Of a DNA stretch of 64,000 nt, positions 3,723 to 63,990 are shown in pieces. The notes under the pieces are model-generated. The model had not been told where the DNA came from and made no database searches. It saw only the letters and a list, made by a program, of their open reading frames with translations. The position numbers and the translations under genes were made by a program. The number at the start of each line of letters is the position of its first letter. The first letter of the stretch is position 1. The stretch comes from Minisyncoccota bacterium (GTDB lineage: Bacteria; Patescibacteriota; Minisyncoccia; Phycocordibacterales; Zambryskibacteraceae), in the NCBI GenBank assembly GCA_020059045.1, contig JAGVCW010000021.1:27821-91820 (forward strand). The letters run 5' to 3'.

Positions 3723-3831
3723 CTGCACGGTATTTTATATGATGGCCGTGTTTTTTATACCTAGACTTTTCTTGATTTACCTGTAATCTCAAAAAAAGAA
3801 GCTCACTTACAATCTGCCACCAAGGTTCTTC

Positions 3832-4422
3832 ATGACTTATATTTCGGAGGGAGATCGTCGGTTCTGGCAAAGGAAGTACCCAGAGTTGACTGACCCGAAG
3901 AGATGGGATGATAAAGTCTGGAAAAGTGTAAAAATTGGAATGCACGCATCTCCAAATGCTTTGATAGCAGAAGTACGAGAAAAAGGTTTTGAAGTGGGAG
4001 AAGAAACTGTGCACATCTTACATAGTGTTACTTCAGAACCACGAACAGTTGAGCTCGTTCGTATGGAGAAGTGGAATATCACTCGCTGCATCACGCCAGG
4101 CATTGATGAGGATTGGTTGGCGAGACATCTCCCGATCTTTGGTCTAGAACCTGCAAACCCAGAAATTGCACTTGCACTACGCATGGACTACAGCGATCAG
4201 CCAGAAGGTGAAGAATTGGGAGTAGTTGTGGAAGATGCAAGAATTTGGCAGTTCGATCCTTCAGAGCTAGTCCATACAGGTGAGGCTCGTCCAGGTATAA
4301 TTTCACTAAAAAATCTGAAGGGAAGTAAGCAAGTGAGAATCTGGACGGGGGATTACACTTCTGCTCCATGGAATTTTGCCCCAGTGTATGATTGGGTCTT
4401 TGCTCGAGTAACTCCAAGATGA
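3832..4422 (+). CDS. Hypothetical protein
   Basis: 196-aa ORF, no recognisable motif. Confidence 0.4.
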   Translation: MTYISEGDRRFWQRKYPELTDPKRWDDKVWKSVKIGMHASPNALIAEVREKGFEVGEETVHILHSVTSEPRTVELVRMEKWNITRCITPGIDEDWLARHLPIFGLEPANPEIALALRMDYSDQPEGEELGVVVEDARIWQFDPSELVHTGEARPGIISLKNLKGSKQVRIWTGDYTSAPWNFAPVYDWVFARVTPR

Positions 4423-48801: not shown

Positions 48802-48875
48802 GTCCACCCTCCACGATTTGAACGTGGGACCCTCGAGGTATAAGCTCGATGCTCTAACCAACTGAGCTAAGGGTG
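48802..48875 (-). tRNA. tRNA-Ile, anticodon TAT (UAU)
   Basis: - strand cloverleaf: acceptor CCACCCT/AGGGTGG, D-arm GCTC/GAGC, anticodon arm TCGAG-CTTATAC-CTCGA, T-arm CCACG-TTCAAAT-CGTGG. 74 nt, no encoded CCA. Confidence 0.75.
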
Positions 48876-49053
48876 GTATAGCGCTCAAATACTATATCAA
48901 ATATGGAAATCCTTCAATTATTACAGTCGTGCGGTTAAGTGTCCCAGCTATCCACAACGTGAGTATTCACATTGTTATAACCTAAGGGTATACTTCTAAT
49001 CAAGTTGCGGTCCTGTCTTGAAACCTTATTTATTCTTAACTTCTCTTAATAAT

Positions 49054-53622: not shown

Positions 53623-55782
53623 CTATTCAAAATGGAATTGTTTGCGCTTCTCATCTATTTGATTTTTCAAAATGGGATATTTTTTAAGCTCTGGGTCTTC
53701 TTCAATAAGTTTTCCTGCTTCAAGTCGAGCAGCTTCAACCATCTTCAGATTTTTTATTGCTTCCATTCCTATATCAGAGAGCCCCCACTGCTTGCGACCG
53801 TAGAGCTCGCCTGCACCTCTCTGCACAAGGTCGAACTCGGCAAGCTCAAAGCCACTTTTTGCAGTGCGAAGTGCTTTGAGACGATCCATACTCTTACCAC
53901 TCTTTGTCTCAGAAAATATATAGCAGTAAGGTTGGTGTGAGCTTCGCATTACTCGCCCGCGAAGCTGGTGAAGCTGAGCAAGACCAAATCTTTCTGCCCC
54001 TTCAATTATGATTATTGTGGCATTTGGAACATTTACTCCAACTTCAACAACAGAAGTTGAAACCAAAATATTTATTTTTCCATCCTTAAAGTCGTTCATG
54101 ACTTCATCCTTCTCCCCAGGTTTCATTTTGCCGTGCATGACCCCAACTTGAAATTCGGTAAAAACATCTTTTTTAAGACGCTTTGCTTCTTCTGTAACAG
54201 ATTTTGCAATCAAAGCCATTTCCCGAGTAGGGTCTGGTTCATCAATACGAGGGCAAATCACGTATGCTTGGCGACCAGACCTTAGCTCTTTACGTATTTT
54301 TTCGTACACTTGGCCTCGAGTATTTGGCAATACAATTTCTGTAATAGGCCATTTACGACCAGGAGGTAGCTCATCAAGTAGTGAAAGATCGAGGTCCCCA
54401 TAGACAGTTAGGGCCAGTGTGCGGGGTATGGGGGTCGCAGTCATGCTCAAAAGGTGGGGGATGACTCCACCTCTCTCTCTAAATTTCTGCCTCTGTGTGG
54501 TTCCAAATTTGTGTTGTTCGTCGATAATTGAAAAAGCAAGATGTTTAAATTTAACGCTTTTCTGGATAAGAGTGTGAGTGCCAATAAGTATTGGTATCTC
54601 GCCACTTGCGACCCACTTGAGGAGCTGGGAACGAGAGATGTTTGTCGCACCAAGCGGATTTATTTTGGACGGAAACTTCCTTGCACCACTTCCGGTGATG
54701 AGGCCCACCTGAACTCCAGTATATGCAAAGTATTTAACAAATGACTCAAAGTGTTGCTCAGCCAAGATTTCTGTTGGAACCATGTATGCAACCTGAAGGT
54801 TCCCAAAGTCCTGATTCTTCGGCTTTGTGGAGATTACAGCGAATGATGCGGTGGCGGCGACAGCAGTTTTCCCACTTCCCACATCTCCTTCGAGAAGCCG
54901 AGCCATAGGCACACCCTTCTTGAAGTCATCTAGAATATGGTTTACAGATTTTTTTTGGGCTTCTGTAAGAGGGAAGGGAAATCTGCTGATAAAGTCCGTT
55001 AGTTCACTAAATTTTTTAGAGATCTCAAATGAATCATGTTGTTGCCAAAGTTTGCGACTCTTGTGTTTCTCAAGTTGAATGAAGAATACTTCTTCAAATG
55101 CAAACCGTTTACGTGCTGAGAGTGCATCGTCTTTGTTCTTCGGAGTGTGGATCCATATGAGAGCAGTTTTAAGTGTAGGAAGATTGTATTTTTTTAAAAT
55201 ACTTTCAGGTATGGGGTCCACCAGCTCATCAAGCAATCCTGATTTGAAAACTTTTTGGATTGCATGGAATATCCAGTTGGATGTTACACCACGGGTTTCA
55301 GGGTAGACAGGGTATAGGTAGTGGTCCTCGTTACCTTCACCAAATAGTGAAGTTGCCCCAGTGTGAAGTGGAAGCTTCGCAATATTTTCTATCTTCGGGT
55401 TAGAAAGATAGAGCTCTCCTTTTCTCTCCGAAACTTTTCCTTCGGCACGGACAAAGCTGCCATCCTGAAGCATTTTTGCCAAGTATGGCTGATTGAACCA
55501 AACAACCTTTATACTTCCAGTCTCATCTTCAAGCATACCTTCAGCCATAGGGATTTTCTTCTTCCATGCTTTCTTCATTTTGAGCCCAGAAATTTTCCCA
55601 AATATTACTGCCGCTTCTCCTCGAGCCAAGCTTTCTATAGATTTAATTTCTGAGGTGTCTCCATACCGGCTGGGGAAGTAGTGGAGAATGTCCTCGACAG
55701 TTAGTATGTCAATCTTCTTAAGAGCCTTTTGTTGAGGAGGAAGAATGCGTAGGTGATCCGTAAGTATAGAATCATTTTTCAT
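53623..55782 (-). CDS. recG: ATP-dependent DNA helicase RecG
   Basis: Wedge/OB N-domain, helicase motifs GDVGSGKT, DEQHKFG, C-terminal domain. 719 aa. Confidence 0.9.
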   Translation of the reverse strand: MKNDSILTDHLRILPPQQKALKKIDILTVEDILHYFPSRYGDTSEIKSIESLARGEAAVIFGKISGLKMKKAWKKKIPMAEGMLEDETGSIKVVWFNQPYLAKMLQDGSFVRAEGKVSERKGELYLSNPKIENIAKLPLHTGATSLFGEGNEDHYLYPVYPETRGVTSNWIFHAIQKVFKSGLLDELVDPIPESILKKYNLPTLKTALIWIHTPKNKDDALSARKRFAFEEVFFIQLEKHKSRKLWQQHDSFEISKKFSELTDFISRFPFPLTEAQKKSVNHILDDFKKGVPMARLLEGDVGSGKTAVAATASFAVISTKPKNQDFGNLQVAYMVPTEILAEQHFESFVKYFAYTGVQVGLITGSGARKFPSKINPLGATNISRSQLLKWVASGEIPILIGTHTLIQKSVKFKHLAFSIIDEQHKFGTTQRQKFRERGGVIPHLLSMTATPIPRTLALTVYGDLDLSLLDELPPGRKWPITEIVLPNTRGQVYEKIRKELRSGRQAYVICPRIDEPDPTREMALIAKSVTEEAKRLKKDVFTEFQVGVMHGKMKPGEKDEVMNDFKDGKINILVSTSVVEVGVNVPNATIIIIEGAERFGLAQLHQLRGRVMRSSHQPYCYIFSETKSGKSMDRLKALRTAKSGFELAEFDLVQRGAGELYGRKQWGLSDIGMEAIKNLKMVEAARLEAGKLIEEDPELKKYPILKNQIDEKRKQFHFE

Positions 55783-55909
55783 ATAGTCTCCAAATCATAG
55801 CCGATTTGGTCTTTATGACAAATGTTAGTTCCTGTGCTCACACTAACTAAAGCACCAAGTCGTACGACTTGGTGCTTTAGTTAGTGTTTAATACCCCTAC
55901 AGCTTACTA

Positions 55910-56284: not shown

Positions 56285-57073
56285 TCAAAAACTTAAGAAC
56301 TCAGGTTTCTGTCTAAATGCAGCTGACAAACCGACGGATTTACCGCGGTAGTCGTCGCTATAGCTGGTGATAGCGAGACCTCGATGATCAAAGTCGCCAA
56401 CAGCGACACGGGCACCGAATGAGTCGACATTGATGCAACGAACGTAGATCCCTTCAAACAAGCGCTCATCGGTGGCAAGAAAGTGACCGATTATGGTGTA
56501 AACCATGATCTGAGCAGTCGGGAGTTCCTCGTTTTTTGAAAGGAGTGCCAACTGGCCTTCCAAGGTTTCCCAGACTGAGTTGGGAATTGGTTCCTTGCGG
56601 ACCAACTGCCATGTGGGTATACCTTTGTCTGCCGCGAACGGCAGCTTTTTATACCAGTTCATGCTGTAAAGCAGGGTTTGGTCGGGCAGGTTCTTATCAA
56701 CGCCATGGATGTCGAGAATAGACAGTGGGAAAACTGCAACGAGAATGTGCGTATCCTTACAGGATTCGAGCACACTCTTTTTGAACGGAATTTCGCCGAG
56801 ATCGGAAAGCTGTTGCTTCGTGGCTTTAACCCCGAAGTACTTGATCGCCTCCTCGATACCGAAGAAGTTCCTTCCCATGATCACTCGTGCAAGTATCTGT
56901 GATTCGGAAGGTTCATAACCACCGCTGATCATGAATCGTGCAACTTTTCCCACGAATTCAGGGTCCGTATTGAGGCGGTCGGCGACTTCGTCAGCGTTGT
57001 TCCTGAAAGCCCTCCATAAGCGTTGATTGGCGGCATTGATGTCACCATGGGGGACTTGAGTCCATACTTTCAT
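56285..57073 (-). CDS. Hypothetical protein
   Basis: ATG 57073 (MKVWTQVPHG...) inside ORF 56285..57286. Start uncertain. Confidence 0.45.
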   Translation of the reverse strand: MKVWTQVPHGDINAANQRLWRAFRNNADEVADRLNTDPEFVGKVARFMISGGYEPSESQILARVIMGRNFFGIEEAIKYFGVKATKQQLSDLGEIPFKKSVLESCKDTHILVAVFPLSILDIHGVDKNLPDQTLLYSMNWYKKLPFAADKGIPTWQLVRKEPIPNSVWETLEGQLALLSKNEELPTAQIMVYTIIGHFLATDERLFEGIYVRCINVDSFGARVAVGDFDHRGLAITSYSDDYRGKSVGLSAAFRQKPEFLSF

Positions 57074-57439
57074 GTTTTTCACCTTTTCTGTTAGCCTTTT
57101 TGAAGTTATCTTGAAGGCGACTAGAAAGTGGGAATACGATCCCGGTTTACGTCTTGCCTCGGATGAGACAAGCTTTTTAAGTCCTAATATTTTAAGGCCC
57201 AGAAAGCTTGTCTCACTTGAGTTTTGTATGAAGAGCAGTTGTTTATGTTCTTTTTGTATTATACTATATATGAGCTTAAAAAGCAAGGGCTATTTCCGGC
57301 CTATAAATATGCCGTTTTTTGGTTGTAATATGTCTTGACATGTATGTTATAATATGCTATGTTGCAAGTGGATTCAGCGGTATGTCCTTGGGCAATTTCG
57401 CTTCAGGGGTGAGTCGCTGACCAAAACAAGGAGCTAGGC

Positions 57440-58015
57440 ATGTCATTTGGAAAAGATTACCGTCTCGTTGGTGAAGCTACAGTGACCGGAGAGAAGTTTG
57501 GTGCTGGAACAACCTTCTGGTCATCTCTTGTACATACCGACATTATCGGTCGGATCAGGCTGATGGTTGAACACTACGCCATTGTTGGGAAGTACATTGG
57601 TCAGCCACTGGTCTATGATCGGGAAGAGCTCATTGCATGGCTCACTGATCGATCTAGCAACTGTCTCAAGTGTTACCCGTATTACGTGGATGATGAGAAA
57701 ATGTTAATAACGGACCAACCCCGTTTCATTTCCGAGTTTTTTTCCAAAATGAAGGAAATCGGGCTCGGGTGGATGGAGTTCCGGCTGTATTACGGTAGGC
57801 TAATCGACAAGTATTTTCAAAGAAATACCAAGTCCCTCGAATCCGATTGGGATGAGAAGGAAATCTTTCGCTCAGAACCGCGTCCTGGGGCACTCTTCGA
57901 TGATTGCATAACTCCCCAACGCTTCGTTGATGTTCTGGATGAGATCGTAGCGAACCGGCGACGGATACACGAGCTTCCTGTTGCACGGGCTGTGCCCACG
58001 TATAGCTATAAGTAA
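57440..58015 (+). CDS. Hypothetical protein
   Basis: AAGGAG SD. 191 aa. Confidence 0.5.
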   Translation: MSFGKDYRLVGEATVTGEKFGAGTTFWSSLVHTDIIGRIRLMVEHYAIVGKYIGQPLVYDREELIAWLTDRSSNCLKCYPYYVDDEKMLITDQPRFISEFFSKMKEIGLGWMEFRLYYGRLIDKYFQRNTKSLESDWDEKEIFRSEPRPGALFDDCITPQRFVDVLDEIVANRRRIHELPVARAVPTYSYK

Positions 58016-58149: not shown

Positions 58150-58560
58150 AAAATAGATTGAAAAGGGATTCGGTCACAGATAATTTTCTGTTGAAAAAGT
58201 TCACCCCACAAGTTTTTGCATACTTGCAAAACTTGCAGGCCCACCTCAGCTCGACAGCTTCCGGTCTTGCGAAAGCTTCAACTATTCGCTTTCTCACCCC
58301 GCCTCGCGCCGTCGCGCTCCGGCTTTCGAATCCCACCTCTCACGCGCCGACGTCCGACTCGAACAGCACATTTGGCTGTTCTTTCCGGTCGTTGCGGAGA
58401 CGATGCCCGGAACTTTGAACCAAAAATACGGCTCAAATTCGAGGATCTTGATAAAAGTATACAGAAACTAAGAGCTATCTACAAAGTCCACCCTGAATGG
58501 TTTGAAGTACCAAAACCCAAATCAACCAAAGGTAAGAACGAGGTAGACTATTCGATTTAG
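58150..58560 (+). repeat. Repeat unit A: tRNA-Ser-derived fragments plus conserved 3' coding fragment
   Basis: GATTCGGTCAC T-arm-like remnant. + strand TTCGAATCCCACCTCTCACGCGCC resembles the tRNA-Ser 3' end. Last 150 bp ~85% identical to 62900-63060. Confidence 0.65.
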
Positions 58561-58570
58561 CACTGGTTAT

Positions 58571-59497
58571 TTAGTAACTTTGTGCAAGAGTATTATCAAA
58601 TACATGCTCGTATCTTTCGGGCGAACCAAATCCATGCTCATCAAAATCATCAAGTAAATCTTTTAGCGGAAATGACCTGGCGCCATCTTTTCTCCTGACT
58701 ATGCAGCGACCACCTTGTTTAGTACCAAAAGGATGCCTTTGAGGACTGACCACATCTTCTTGGATATAAGGCTTAGAAAAGACCTCTTTATTAAAGTAAG
58801 CAATGACTTTCTTGTGAACCGTATCTAAATAATTCTTTCCTGAATCATCCCCGTTGAAATATTCCCCATGCACCAATCGATTTCTTAACCCATTTTCATC
58901 TGCAAATATTTCTGTTGCTAAATCCTCACCTAAAATCTTTGTATATAAATTTATTGACTTTTTGAATACAGATTTATTCCTTTTCCGAGCCATTGCTTCC
59001 ATTGCAGAAAACATCAAAAGAAGTTTTGCAGAATAACCTGAAGCGTTTACAGCGTCATTCCAGTAATGATAGAAGGGTTCTGGAATTTCCTCATGTTTTA
59101 GGAGTTCTACTAGACCGTCTCGTTCTTTCTCCATAAACATCAACCCTCCTGATTTCACATCTTGACTGTACTCAAAAAACGCAATGTCTCTACTGAGATC
59201 ATGAACTATAAAAGGTTCTCTTGTGAATTCTATGTACGACTGACAAATTAATGATATGCGTGGAATGAGTTTGTTCAACCTTGCTCTAAAAACATTTATT
59301 GCGTCTATAAAGTTTTCAGCTTCAATTTCACAGGTTGCAATCCAAGCATCTGAATCTTTCCAGCCATCTCTAAAATTAAAGTCACAATGGGAAAATTCCA
59401 AACCTTCAATTTCAAACGAAGCAGGTTTTTCTTTCACCTCCATTACTGCGCAATGAGCAAGTGTGAGAATTTTATGTTCTATTCTGTATTTTTTCAT
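58571..59497 (-). CDS. Hypothetical protein translationally coupled to guaA; candidate HEPN-like R-x4-H motif
   Basis: ATG 59495-59497 abuts guaA stop 59498-59500. Contains LRNRLVHGEY (Rx4H). No other recognisable domain. Confidence 0.5.
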   Translation of the reverse strand: MKKYRIEHKILTLAHCAVMEVKEKPASFEIEGLEFSHCDFNFRDGWKDSDAWIATCEIEAENFIDAINVFRARLNKLIPRISLICQSYIEFTREPFIVHDLSRDIAFFEYSQDVKSGGLMFMEKERDGLVELLKHEEIPEPFYHYWNDAVNASGYSAKLLLMFSAMEAMARKRNKSVFKKSINLYTKILGEDLATEIFADENGLRNRLVHGEYFNGDDSGKNYLDTVHKKVIAYFNKEVFSKPYIQEDVVSPQRHPFGTKQGGRCIVRRKDGARSFPLKDLLDDFDEHGFGSPERYEHVFDNTLAQSY

Positions 59498-61045
59498 TTA
59501 TTCGTACTCAATTGTAGCTGGAGGCTTTTGAGTAATATCGTAAAGAACGCGATTTACCCCTCGCACCTTGCCGATAATCGCGCTGGATATTTTTTCCAGC
59601 AGCTCATTTGGGATTTTGTGCCAGTCAGCACTCATACCATCTATCGAATCAACTGCGCGAAGCGCGATCACGTATTCATACGTACGACCATCGCCCATAA
59701 CACCTACCACTTTAACTGGCAGTAGTGCGGCAAAGGCCTGCCAGATCTTTTCGTACTCTCCTGCTTTGCGTAGCTCCTCAATAAATACCGAATCAGCTTC
59801 GCGGAGGATTTGAAGCCGCTCTTCGGTGATTTCTCCGACAATACGTACTGCAAGTCCTGGACCTGGGAATGGATGCCTCCAGAGAAGTTCTCTTGGAAGT
59901 CCTAGAGTTAAACCTACGCGACGCACTTCATCTTTGTACAAATCCTTTATGGGCTCAAGTATTTTGAAGCCCATCTTTTCGGGAAGCGTGAGGTTGTGAT
60001 GGCTCTTGATTTTCGCTACCGTTTTAGATGTTGAAGCAGACTCAATACGGTCGGGATAAATAGTACCTTGAGCTAAATATGCGATTGTATGTTTTTTGAG
60101 TTCATTTTTAATTGCTTTCTCAAACACTTCAATAAAGCTGTGGCCGATGATTTTACGTTTCTGCTCTGGGTCGGAAATGCCCTTTAAGCGTTTTAAGAAG
60201 AGAGGGCTTGCATCTATGACATGTAGTTGTCTGAAGCCATTTTTGCGTAGGTATGAAGCTACTTGTTCAACCTCCCCCTTACGAAGAAGCCCTGTATCGA
60301 CAAAGACTGCATGTAGGCGATTGCCAATGGTCCTATGGATAAGTGTAGCTGCTACCAGTGAATCGACGCCGCCTGAAATACCCACAACTACGTGCCTGTC
60401 TCCAACCTCATTTTTAACCTCCGCGACGATATTTTCTGTCACTGAGTTAATCCTCCAGTTCTTTTTGGCTTTACATATTGAGAATAGGAAGTTCTTAAGT
60501 AATTTTTCTCCATGCTGAGTATGGGTGACCTCTGGATGGAACTGGATGCCGTAGAAGTTGTTTTGTAAATCAGCAAAAGCAGCATATTTGCAGCCAATAG
60601 TAGATGCTGTCTGTTTAAACCCCTTAGGCAAAGCTGATACTTGGTCACCATGCGAGAACCACACAACTTCTTTTGAGGAGAGCGTCTGGAAAATTCCGCT
60701 CTTGTTTTTGATTGCAAGATTTTCTTTGCCGAACTCTCGATGTTTCCCTTTGGCAACCTTGCCACCAAGCATTTGCGCCATGACTTGATGCCCGTAGCAG
60801 ATGCCAAGAACTGGAATACCGATTTTGAATATTGGTTTGTCGGGTCTAGGACTACCTTTTTCTAGGACTGATGCAGGGCCACCTGAAAGGATGATACCAA
60901 CAGGATTATGTTTCTGTATTTCAGAAGCAGGAGTATCAAAAGGCAAAATCTCGGCTTTTACACCGAGATCCCGCACGCGTCTTGCAATGAGATGGGCAAA
61001 CTGGCTTCCGAAATTGAGGATTATGACCATAGTAAATAATATCAC
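59498..61045 (-). CDS. guaA: GMP synthase (glutamine-hydrolysing)
   Basis: Class I GATase (GICYGHQ) plus ATP-pyrophosphatase SGGVDS motif plus C-terminal dimerisation domain. Confidence 0.95.
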   Translation of the reverse strand: MILFTMVIILNFGSQFAHLIARRVRDLGVKAEILPFDTPASEIQKHNPVGIILSGGPASVLEKGSPRPDKPIFKIGIPVLGICYGHQVMAQMLGGKVAKGKHREFGKENLAIKNKSGIFQTLSSKEVVWFSHGDQVSALPKGFKQTASTIGCKYAAFADLQNNFYGIQFHPEVTHTQHGEKLLKNFLFSICKAKKNWRINSVTENIVAEVKNEVGDRHVVVGISGGVDSLVAATLIHRTIGNRLHAVFVDTGLLRKGEVEQVASYLRKNGFRQLHVIDASPLFLKRLKGISDPEQKRKIIGHSFIEVFEKAIKNELKKHTIAYLAQGTIYPDRIESASTSKTVAKIKSHHNLTLPEKMGFKILEPIKDLYKDEVRRVGLTLGLPRELLWRHPFPGPGLAVRIVGEITEERLQILREADSVFIEELRKAGEYEKIWQAFAALLPVKVVGVMGDGRTYEYVIALRAVDSIDGMSADWHKIPNELLEKISSAIIGKVRGVNRVLYDITQKPPATIEYE

Positions 61046-61096: not shown

Positions 61097-61186
61097 TGGC
61101 GGAGAGAGTGGGATTCGAACCCACGGTTCCGGTAAAGGAACGACGGTTTAGTAAACCGTTGATTTAAACCACTCATCCATCTCTCC
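61097..61186 (-). tRNA. Type II tRNA, Ser-like, with anticodon ACT
   Basis: - strand: acceptor GGAGAGA/TCTCTCC, discriminator G, encoded CCA, 3-bp D-stem, anticodon arm ACGGT-TTACTAA-ACCGT, long variable arm GTTCC...GGAAC, T-arm GTGGG-TTCGAAT-CCCAC. Confidence 0.7.
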
Positions 61187-62622: not shown

Positions 62623-62642
62623 AATTTGTTCAAAATGGCCTT

Positions 62643-63073
62643 ACTTTGCTTAAGTTCAAAGTTGCCAATCTGGCGGAGAGGGAAGAATGATTCGGTCACG
62701 AATCTTTTTCTGTTGAAAAAGTTCTCGACCTGGATTTCGAATCTGTTTCGAGTCTTACAGACTCTGTACACCTTTCGTATCGTGCTCGTAAACTGCGCGC
62801 GATGTACTCAAGGTTTTCGAATCTCCCACGTCCCGCTGTGGTGGGACTCCTCTCTCGCAAAATCACATCCCTTAAGAAGGGATAGATTTTGGCGGGGATG
62901 ATGCTCGGAACTTTGAACCTAAAACACGGCTCACGTTCGAGAATCTTGATAAAAGTATACAGAAACTAAGGGCTATCTACAAAGTCCACCCTGAATGGTT
63001 TGAAGTTCCTAAGCCGAAATCAGATAAAGGCAGGAATGAGGTTGATTACACTGAGCTTAACCAACCTTCATGA
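62643..63073 (+). repeat. Repeat unit B: 26-bp direct repeat of the tRNA-Ser 3' flank and end, degenerate tRNA fragments, conserved 3' coding fragment
   Basis: 62643-62668 is identical to 61081-61106. GATTCGGTCACGAATC remnant. TTCGAATCTCCCACGTCCCGC tRNA-like segment. 3' block homologous to unit A. Confidence 0.65.
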
Positions 63074-63990
63074 GCAGAATCGGCTGCTTTCGTATTGTCG
63101 AAAATAGAGTCAATGCGACGGATTATCGGAGCGTCGAGTGCAGAACCAACGTGCAAGAGAAATTCTTTTGTCGTTTCTAATATTAACTGTGCAATTGGCA
63201 GTATTTGTTGAGGTCTTGGGCGCCCCCATTCAAATTTTGGACTGAATCCTTGATCGCTGTATTCAAGATGATGGTCTAAAATGTCCGTCCAGTTACCATG
63301 AATGCTACGAGAACTACCGCCGTAAAGAGCAAGATACGTAGACTCAAGTCCTACGTCCCTAGTTCTCTCATAGAAGTTTTTATTTCCCCATTCTTTCGGT
63401 TGGTTTGGTAATACATCATCAATTTTTATTCCTGACTTCCTCGCGACTTTTTCAATAGATGAGAGCATTCGGTGCTCAATGTGTAAACTTATTCCTTTTC
63501 TATTTTCAATGTTTTTTGAAATTAAATCTCGTAATTTTCTCTCATTGCGTAATGCGTATTTTACGTATGAGTCGAACAGTTCTGTTGAATCATTTTTAAT
63601 TAAAAACTTTATGTTTACTACGTTTTCAAATAGAAGACGCGAAATAATAAAAACGACTTCTTGCCGTTTTTGACAAATTTGATCTAAATGAGCAGATAAG
63701 AGTTTGGAAAGACGTACAAAGTTGCCACCAATGATAGCTTGATCTCGAGTCCACTTCTTTGAGTCCGGGGGCAATACACCAGCAGCGAGCGCTACTATTG
63801 AAGCTGTTTCTTTCATCAGCTCTACTGACAGATGCATAAAATCGTCTTCGTTCTTTAGAGAATCAAGCTGTTCAGGAGTTATTTCGATGTGATTGATGGT
63901 CTCGAGTATCTCACCAATATCCGCTAATTCAGTTTCTTTACTTTCATTCATGAATGTCGTGCTTACCGTCGTTATAAAGTTTACGACCAT
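63046..63990 (-). CDS. Hypothetical protein (may extend past window end)
   Basis: 314-aa ORF. No stop between its ATG and the window edge. Confidence 0.45.
   Translation of the reverse strand: MVVNFITTVSTTFMNESKETELADIGEILETINHIEITPEQLDSLKNEDDFMHLSVELMKETASIVALAAGVLPPDSKKWTRDQAIIGGNFVRLSKLLSAHLDQICQKRQEVVFIISRLLFENVVNIKFLIKNDSTELFDSYVKYALRNERKLRDLISKNIENRKGISLHIEHRMLSSIEKVARKSGIKIDDVLPNQPKEWGNKNFYERTRDVGLESTYLALYGGSSRSIHGNWTDILDHHLEYSDQGFSPKFEWGRPRPQQILPIAQLILETTKEFLLHVGSALDAPIIRRIDSIFDNTKAADSAHEGWLSSV

Follow-up and report, generated by a model that had tools for sequence, protein, structure and literature searches.

A candidate HEPN endoribonuclease of an unnamed family encoded directly after guaA in a Patescibacteria genome

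We analyzed a 64,000-nt stretch of DNA from a Minisyncoccota bacterium (contig JAGVCW010000021.1, positions 27,821 to 91,820; hereafter the window), in which the GMP synthase gene guaA is followed without a gap by an open reading frame (ORF) of 308 aa. The reading that we favor, with a probability of roughly 0.6, is that the 308-aa protein is a HEPN endoribonuclease of an unnamed family, a stand-alone defense or abortive-infection toxin that travels horizontally and is carried here as promoter-less cargo after guaA, with guaA as its expression platform. That the protein has a HEPN fold with an intact catalytic motif is, taken by itself, very probable. The features of the gene and its junction with guaA are as follows.

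58571-59497, minus strand: the 308-aa HEPN-like ORF, with its stop codon at 58571-58573
59153-59497, minus strand: N-terminal alpha/beta domain, residues 1-115, which carries the invariant Q86
58760-59146, minus strand: predicted HEPN domain, residues ~118-246
58997-58999, minus strand: E167 of the E-x3-R/K motif (E167..R171), invariant in alignment A1
58868-58885, minus strand: Rx4H motif R205-N-R-L-V-H210, the predicted catalytic site
58574-58759, minus strand: C-terminal region (residues 247-308), comprising a small beta unit and R254 (in PQR), which is invariant
59495-59500, minus strand: TAA-ATG stop-start junction of guaA and the 308-aa gene
59498-61030, minus strand: guaA, glutamine-hydrolysing GMP synthase (NF000848; homologues of 510 aa)

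Conservation and predicted fold

The sequence LRNRLVHGEY, which the original prediction had singled out as a candidate HEPN ribonuclease (RNase) motif, occupies residues 204-213 of the protein. About 0.3 Rx4H motifs are expected by chance in 308 aa, as estimated from residue frequencies; a lone motif in a protein of this length is weak, and we count it as evidence only because it is conserved. In an alignment of 45 close homologues (A1), G203, R205, R207, H210, G211 and Y213 are invariant, as is E167 further upstream, and the pattern GLRxRLxHG is shared by all 45 sequences. When 60 members with identities down to 23% were compared, the sole invariant residues were Q86, R205, H210 and R254. Secondary hallmarks of HEPN domains are a polar N, D or H after the arginine and an upstream acidic residue, typically in the form Ex3[KR] (Anantharaman et al. 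2013, PMC3710099). The residue after the conserved arginine is N206 in the window protein and N or H in the aligned homologues, and the upstream motif of the window protein reads E167-A-M-A-R171. In the distant half of the family the glutamate at this position is mostly retained, and the K/R of Ex3[KR] is often replaced by glycine.

AlphaFold2, run on the family alignment (pLDDT 80), models the protein in three parts, namely an N-terminal alpha/beta domain (four strands, a long helix and two further strands), a central helical domain (residues ~123-240) and a small C-terminal beta unit. Residues 204-209 form a short helix in the model, which bears out the earlier statement that the motif lies in a predicted helical region. 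By structure comparison, the predicted helical domain is closer to HEPN proteins than to any other solved fold, and the model shows the all-alpha bundle of ~100-130 residues that solved members of the HEPN superfamily have. With the Rx4H residues invariant among homologues and the helical domain most like HEPN proteins, the HEPN interpretation withstood the two findings that were to decide against it, a model without a HEPN-like fold and loss of the motif among homologues. At the sequence level, the only notable sub-threshold Pfam matches among ~100 members were to two HEPN families, HepT-like (E 6e-4, in 2 of 45 members) and HEPN_Apea (E 0.0018, in 1 of 60).

Not every HEPN fold is a nuclease. 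Non-catalytic HEPN families exist (PMC3710099), and the structural matches of the 308-aa protein include HI0074, a protein of the substrate-binding-domain type; it might thus be an RNA- or nucleotide-binding regulator comparable to MtlR or to the substrate-binding domains of nucleotidyltransferases. We consider this decidedly unlikely. Non-catalytic HEPN domains have typically lost the Rx4-6H motif (PMC3710099), whereas R205 and H210 are among only four invariant residues here, and both the polar residue after the arginine and the upstream glutamate are retained.

Family distribution and gene neighborhoods

The 308-aa protein had no match in Pfam, NCBIfam, PADLOC or PHROGs. Since no Pfam, NCBIfam, PADLOC or PDB sequence model reached threshold, we treat it and its relatives as an unnamed family, which, as judged from these sequence searches, lies outside every named HEPN family. 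We found 205 close homologues of 303-318 aa, and an exhaustive profile search gave at least 344 cluster representatives at 50% identity, 158 of them at E 1e-30 or better; the best 150 of the 344 are all ~300 aa long or fragments. Named sources are in the majority Patescibacteria (Levybacteria, Moraniibacteria, Parcubacteria, Saccharibacteria and others). Scattered members occur in Nitrospirota, Alphaproteobacteria, Omnitrophota, Elusimicrobia, Binatia, a Bdellovibrio-like bacterium, a Woesearchaeote (a DPANN archaeon) and two cultured strains of Nocardia, N. amikacinitolerans NBRC 108937 being a cultured carrier. This patchy distribution points to an accessory gene that moves horizontally.

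We then considered the genes around the relatives. In at least eight loci (L005, L015, L016, L017, L021, L026, L028 and L049) the family gene lies within or beside a type I restriction-modification (R-M) operon. At L016 it stands between HsdM and HsdS, overlapping the former by 4 nt and separated from the latter by 3 nt, and HsdR follows downstream; at L026 and L028 the order is HsdM, an Rx4H protein of 312-315 aa, the family gene and HsdS, and L028 begins with an Rx4H protein of 170 aa. AAA_15/21 ATPases are adjacent or close to the family gene at four loci (L001, L037, L038 and L056), a DUF5677 gene is immediately upstream of it at two (L018 and L019), and at L009 it is flanked by an EcoRI-type methylase, GmrSD/HNH and DUF3644. 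Serine recombinases occur within 10 kb of the family gene in six loci, and tRNA-Ser genes within 5 kb upstream of it in six loci. The commonest Pfam families among 89 immediate neighbors were N6_Mtase, Eco57I, UPF0020, AAA_21, SMC_N and MmeI_Mtase, and PADLOC recognized type I methyltransferase and specificity subunits among the neighbors. For at least 16 HEPN clades an association with R-M systems has been described, PrrC being the model, in a layout called a "second line of defence" (PMC3710099), and the neighborhoods of the present family match that layout.

The additional Rx4H proteins of L026 (905-1849) and L028 (859-1794 and 2750-3259) carry RNQLAHSG in the proteins of 312-315 aa and RNDIAHN in that of 170 aa, so that these two loci look, by their motifs, like arrays of several HEPN-like genes. 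At L060, the downstream neighbor of the family gene is a bona fide pEK499_p136 HEPN gene (E 4.9e-17).

No partner gene common to all family loci was found with phmmer searches of 25 seed proteins. The 191-aa ORF of the window (57440-58015) and the 192-aa gene that overlaps the homologue at L001 were considered as a shared partner and proved unrelated. A same-strand gene lies upstream within 20 nt of the family gene, or overlaps it, at ~17 of 47 loci. Tight upstream coupling is therefore a habit of the family rather than something specific to guaA, and the genes so coupled elsewhere (hsdM, a 78-aa ORF, a 192-aa ORF) are unrelated.

Relationship to guaA

Both genes lie on the minus strand, and the guaA stop codon TAA (59500-59498) directly abuts the ATG (59497-59495) of the ORF that contains LRNRLVHGEY, just as had been reported; the ORF coordinates confirm it. 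This ATG is the true start, since homologues begin at the same position. The upstream gene is a clear guaA, scoring 739.8 bits against NCBIfam NF000848 (equivalog cutoff 400) and matching GATase, NAD_synthase and GMP_synt_C in Pfam. Its longest ORF spans 59498-61045 and begins at a GTG at 61045. An ATG at 61030 is the more probable start, given that close homologues measure 510 aa and that the alignment to the NCBIfam model begins at residue 7. Relatives of this guaA number in the hundreds at 73-93% identity in Paceibacterota, Kaiserbacteria and Minisyncoccia, and by sequence the gene itself looks native. Neither a terminator-like site separating the two genes nor a good promoter-like site ahead of the 308-aa gene was found. 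The abutting codons and the lack of an intervening terminator-like site suggest that the two genes may be translationally coupled and would be co-transcribed.

On the basis of this arrangement, the original prediction had offered two interpretations, a guanine-nucleotide-linked defense or toxin module, or a partner of guaA, and had proposed that co-occurrence with guaA be checked in other genomes. Searching with the window GuaA, we found guaA within flanks of up to 10 kb at none of 50 other family loci. A homologue with 95% identity (P0001, at L001) follows a 192-aa gene. Both belong to an island downstream of tRNA-Ser(GGA), in which genes for an AAA_15/21 ATPase, an N6_N4 methylase and a nuclease of the MvaI/BcnI type are also found. 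The window and L001 share 92% nucleotide identity over 1,104 nt, starting exactly at the ATG; upstream of it there is no similarity. The 308-aa gene has a G+C content (GC) of 0.36 and a GC at third codon positions (GC3) of 0.29, against 0.45 and 0.41 for guaA, and the step falls at the gene boundary.

The position after guaA also carries different genes in close relatives. In the closest, L066, GuaA is 93% identical and the nucleotide sequence 83% identical through guaA and its upstream region. A 183-aa ORF with RDKLFAH (3792-4343) begins there 4 nt after the guaA stop; its match to HEPN_AbiU2 is sub-threshold (E 3.6e-4, 20.5 bits against a cutoff of 26.8). It is followed by the small ORF D1, described below, at 84% nucleotide identity. 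In L068 (GuaA 90%), a NUDIX gene comes after guaA. Since guaA is followed by other genes in L066 and L068, the post-guaA position is a variable slot. Thus, two close genomes hold two unrelated HEPN-type candidates in this slot, starting 0-4 nt past the guaA stop.

These results bear directly on whether the protein is a partner of GMP synthase, that is, a regulator or a guanine-nucleotide-sensing toxin whose stop-start coupling to guaA is under selection. The junction without a terminator would fit such a role, as would the nucleotide regulation known for some HEPN defense proteins, by dTTP in PrrC (PMC3710099) and by deoxydinucleotides in ApeA (bioRxiv 10.64898/2026.01.26.701840). However, guaA is absent from all 50 other loci, guaA is followed by an AbiU2-like gene or a NUDIX gene in close relatives, composition breaks at the gene boundary, and equally tight coupling to unrelated upstream genes is seen elsewhere in the family. 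A partnership with guaA is accordingly very improbable and close to refuted. Of the earlier interpretation, then, the HEPN or abortive-infection-like part is supported, while the guaA-linked part, in either form, is not. The 308-aa gene was acquired horizontally and came to lie behind guaA by a one-off insertion into a variable slot; the two genes do not form a purine-linked system.

Weight of the evidence and comparison with known HEPN systems

Several observations weigh against the HEPN defense nuclease that we favor. No HEPN-family sequence model reaches threshold for the window protein or its relatives, and the family profile, searched at E up to 10, had zero matches to PDB sequences. The fold assignment depends on AlphaFold2 models whose mean pLDDT (the model's per-residue confidence) is 80-82, and the best Foldseek match in the PDB, at E 0.31, is not significant (HepT ranked third). 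Homologues were not found in the plasmid and phage collections searched, recognizable defense or mobile neighbors occur in only about a third of the loci (many contigs being short), and no R-M system or ATPase adjoins the 308-aa gene in the window itself. The sub-threshold sequence models and the non-significant Foldseek result could indicate a helical fold other than HEPN, with the arginine and histidine serving other chemistry and the likeness arising from a generic helical bundle in the model, and hhalign found no match to a single pEK499_p136 HEPN sequence. We nevertheless consider such a fold unlikely, as the only noteworthy sub-threshold Pfam matches are to two HEPN families, the composition of the motif is right (R-N/H-x3-H), and the gene neighborhoods fit those described for HEPN families (PMC3710099).

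Taken as a HEPN protein, the 308-aa protein can be compared with the systems already described. HepT-type toxins (DUF86, PF01934; e.g., PDB 7ae2, 5yep and 8xdj) are the source of some of the sub-threshold sequence scores. In HepT-MNT (type VII) systems the antitoxin gene encodes an MNT nucleotidyltransferase. No such gene adjoins the 308-aa gene, whose neighbors are guaA and D1, and no nucleotidyltransferase family is among the 25 commonest Pfam families of the 89 immediate neighbors. The HepT motif has the form Rx4HxY, whereas that of the present family is Rx4HxxY, and the 308-aa protein is more than twice as long, with extra N- and C-terminal domains.

The likeness to the anticodon nucleases PrrC and RloC lies in gene order, as in at least eight loci the predicted nuclease of the family stands among hsdM, hsdS and hsdR or next to them, although the window copy is not in an R-M operon. 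PrrC and RloC have an N-terminal ABC ATPase fused to the HEPN domain. In contrast, the 308-aa protein has no P-loop or ABC domain detectable with Pfam, has an alpha/beta N-terminus of 115 residues instead, and has no sequence similarity to either protein.

ApeA, a protein of ~570 aa, resembles the present family in that one polypeptide chain holds both the HEPN domain and flanking domains that are specific to the family and have no known homologues, and in being stand-alone and sometimes embedded in R-M operons. Its HEPN domain is C-terminal, however, whereas that of the 308-aa protein is central, and no ApeA model matched the latter in PADLOC (E up to 1) or Pfam. ApeA is a tRNA anticodon-loop nuclease activated by deoxydinucleotides, with residue 502 as its active-site arginine (bioRxiv 10.64898/2026.01.26.701840).

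The RNase LS toxins RnlA and LsoA, which we take to be solved structures, do not appear among the top 60 structural matches. The 308-aa protein differs from them in that the Pfam models for RnlA/LsoA do not match it; the marks of the RnlA type, N-terminal domains of the TBP-like kind and an antitoxin gene rnlB, are likewise lacking in the protein and at its locus. As for AbiU2-like HEPN proteins (PF18734), a candidate occupies the identical post-guaA slot in L066, with a 4-nt gap to the guaA stop, but the 183-aa and 308-aa cargo proteins are unrelated in sequence and length.

The D1 and D2 repeats

The original prediction had placed the gene in a tRNA-proximal region bracketed by repeats. Both observations are correct: a tRNA-Ser gene lies at 61097-61186, and a 157-nt repeat with 87% identity occurs on either side (58394-58550 and 62892-63048). 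Shorter repeats are also present. The 157-nt repeat corresponds to a small plus-strand ORF, which we call D1, and a second repeat, D2, lies next to the tRNA gene.

58396-58560, plus strand: D1 copy A, a small ORF convergent with the 308-aa gene, with 10 nt between the stop codons
62894-63073, plus strand: D1 copy B, convergent with and overlapping the DUF5677 gene, without a canonical start codon
61052-61106, no strand assigned: D2 copy A, a 55-nt repeat combining the 3′ end of tRNA-Ser with the guaA upstream region (other copy at 62626-62680)
61097-61186, minus strand: tRNA-Ser, anticodon ACU, upstream of guaA
Outside the window: further D1 copies at L001 6693-6863, L001 8927-9088, L043 491-631 and L066 4334-4495

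D1 has ~54 conserved codons (GGDDARNFEPK...HPEWFEVPKPKS.KGKNEVDYSI). Across eight gap-free DNA copies, differences at codon positions 1, 2 and 3 are split 26:20:53%, and insertions and deletions are multiples of three, which indicates that D1 evolves as coding sequence. Its database relatives form 97 clusters, all of at most 95 aa and all from Patescibacteria where named. They are 60-96% identical over the same 54 residues, beginning GGDD(A/V)RNFEPK, and their N-termini are variable or absent. As none exceeds 95 aa, we rejected the possibility that D1 derives from the C-terminus of a split integrase or of some longer target gene. D1 has no consistent start codon, some copies being without any canonical one, and its first bases look like a tRNA 3′ end in reverse complement. 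D1 is convergent with varied genes and lies within ~25 nt of their 3′ ends; besides the genes in the window, it follows an AAA ATPase gene (L001), a gene for an SDH-type protease (L061), a gene for a 311-aa protein (L065) and a family gene in a Taylorbacteria contig (L043). The 311-aa gene was considered as a further family member and is not one.

The two D2 copies are direct repeats of 55 nt with 80% identity, each comprising the last 10 nt of a tRNA-Ser sequence and the 45 nt leading to the start of the next gene (guaA in one case, a tRNA_bind gene in the other). A D2 24-mer is seen twice against 0 expected. The motif also occurs upstream of genes in L001 and directly before a D1 copy in L001 and L066. 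We considered the repeats as ends of a mobile element and rejected this, since housekeeping genes (tRNA_bind, histidine phosphatase, tRNA-Ser and guaA) lie between them and the 157-nt repeat is a coding small ORF. The repeats thus do not delimit an element with the HEPN gene as cargo; they are copies of the D1 ORF and of the intergenic D2 motif. A structured RNA was sought in them with Rfam, which returned only tRNA both at the gathering threshold and at E up to 1.

The proximity of D1 to the 308-aa gene suggested that the protein could be the toxin of a two-gene toxin-antitoxin pair, with D1, or the small upstream ORF of other loci, as the antidote. HEPN toxins often have cognate antitoxins (PMC3710099), D1 is under coding constraint and lies 10-25 nt from the 3′ end of a family gene in three contexts that are independent of one another (the window, L001-L004 and L043), and in several relatives a short upstream ORF overlaps the family gene by 4 nt (78 aa at L015, 107 aa at L017). 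Against this, D1 is present at only 3 of ~49 distinct loci, some copies have no start codon, and it also comes after unrelated genes (DUF5677, AAA ATPase, SDH-type protease and the 311-aa gene), while the upstream neighbors are not homologous to each other and neither an MNT nucleotidyltransferase nor an RnlB-like partner was seen. We therefore regard such a pair as improbable, and a stand-alone toxin remains our preferred reading.

A different role for D1 would be that the interval from the stop codon of a host gene to D1 is a dedicated exchange site of Patescibacteria, at which promoter-less defense genes are swapped in and out, with D1 as a portable recombination anchor or a partner of the cargo. 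The 308-aa HEPN family, the AbiU2-like HEPN, DUF5677 and the AAA ATPase would be examples of such cargo. This proposal is doubtful; if true, the D1 exchange site would be a cassette system unlike integrons. As for integron-like cassettes themselves, D1 inspected by eye is without the R''/R' core consensus, and no integrase is nearby. The D1 micro-ORF, marking the far side of the slots, is a more unusual item than the HEPN-like gene.

Segments rich in G+C adjoin the D1 copies (58150-58394 and 62680-62892). They are ~210-245 nt long and only ~60% alike, and they contain no convincing ORF and no Rfam match at E up to 1. A piece of the copy B segment (62754-62823) is 84.5% identical to L066 4526-4596.

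Other features of the window

Beyond D1 copy B, at 63046-63990 on the minus strand, lies a gene for a DUF5677 protein (E 2.9e-24) with a low GC of 0.35-0.385. DUF5677 is among the domains enriched near defense loci marked by serine recombinases, according to a preprint (PMC12632615), and the window gene is probably a second acquired gene of defense type. Just beyond D1 copy A are two ORFs, 56285-57286 (minus strand, 333 aa) and the 191-aa ORF mentioned above (plus strand), neither of which had a match in any library searched. The GC around them is 0.47-0.50, above that of the neighboring DNA, and they may be further cargo of the variable region. A perfect 48-nt palindrome, with two 24-nt arms and no spacer, occurs at 55840-55887, between a RecG-like helicase gene (53623-55782, identified by eye) and an 84-aa ORF.

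The anticodon loop of the window tRNA-Ser reads UUACUAA; A34 is unusual for a bacterial tRNA-Ser. In relatives, a tRNA-Ser(CGA) lies upstream of guaA, with an anticodon stem similar to that of the window tRNA-Ser. AGC codons occur in guaA and in the RecG-like helicase gene. A tRNA-Ile with anticodon UAU is found at 48802-48876 on the minus strand.

Proposed mechanism and significance

In the mechanism that we propose, the active site would lie in the central helical domain and consist of R205-x4-H210, N206 and the upstream E167-x3-R171. Two subunits would pair via their HEPN domains, as in other proteins with one HEPN domain, to form a composite R-x4-H site, and the predicted metal-independent cleavage of RNA (tRNA, rRNA or mRNA) would arrest translation. 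Q86 lies in the N-terminal domain and R254 in the C-terminal segment, both of which are family-specific; these two parts might bind the substrate, or they might impose on the nuclease a latency that a signal then lifts. In ApeA, tRNA cleavage is turned on through a ligand pocket built by the non-HEPN domains (bioRxiv 10.64898/2026.01.26.701840), and latency imposed by flanking domains would resemble this switch. The protein would act as a second-line defense or abortive-infection toxin, like PrrC or ApeA, moving among defense neighborhoods. In the window, its gene sits in the variable slot between guaA and D1, where it probably borrows the guaA transcript and, via the TAA-ATG junction, the guaA ribosomes.

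The protein represents a new, unnamed family of a well-known kind of defense or toxin nuclease, and no new link between purine metabolism and immunity is revealed. What the family adds to the HEPN nucleases is a fairly large group, numbering at least 344 clusters at 50% identity, whose three-part architecture is distinct. Patescibacteria (CPR, or candidate phyla radiation, bacteria) have tiny genomes and a poorly charted antiviral repertoire, and the family is a ready candidate for catalogues of defense systems. The locus also illustrates a mode of carriage, in which promoter-less cargo stands immediately behind a housekeeping gene and one slot is filled by different HEPN genes in close relatives.

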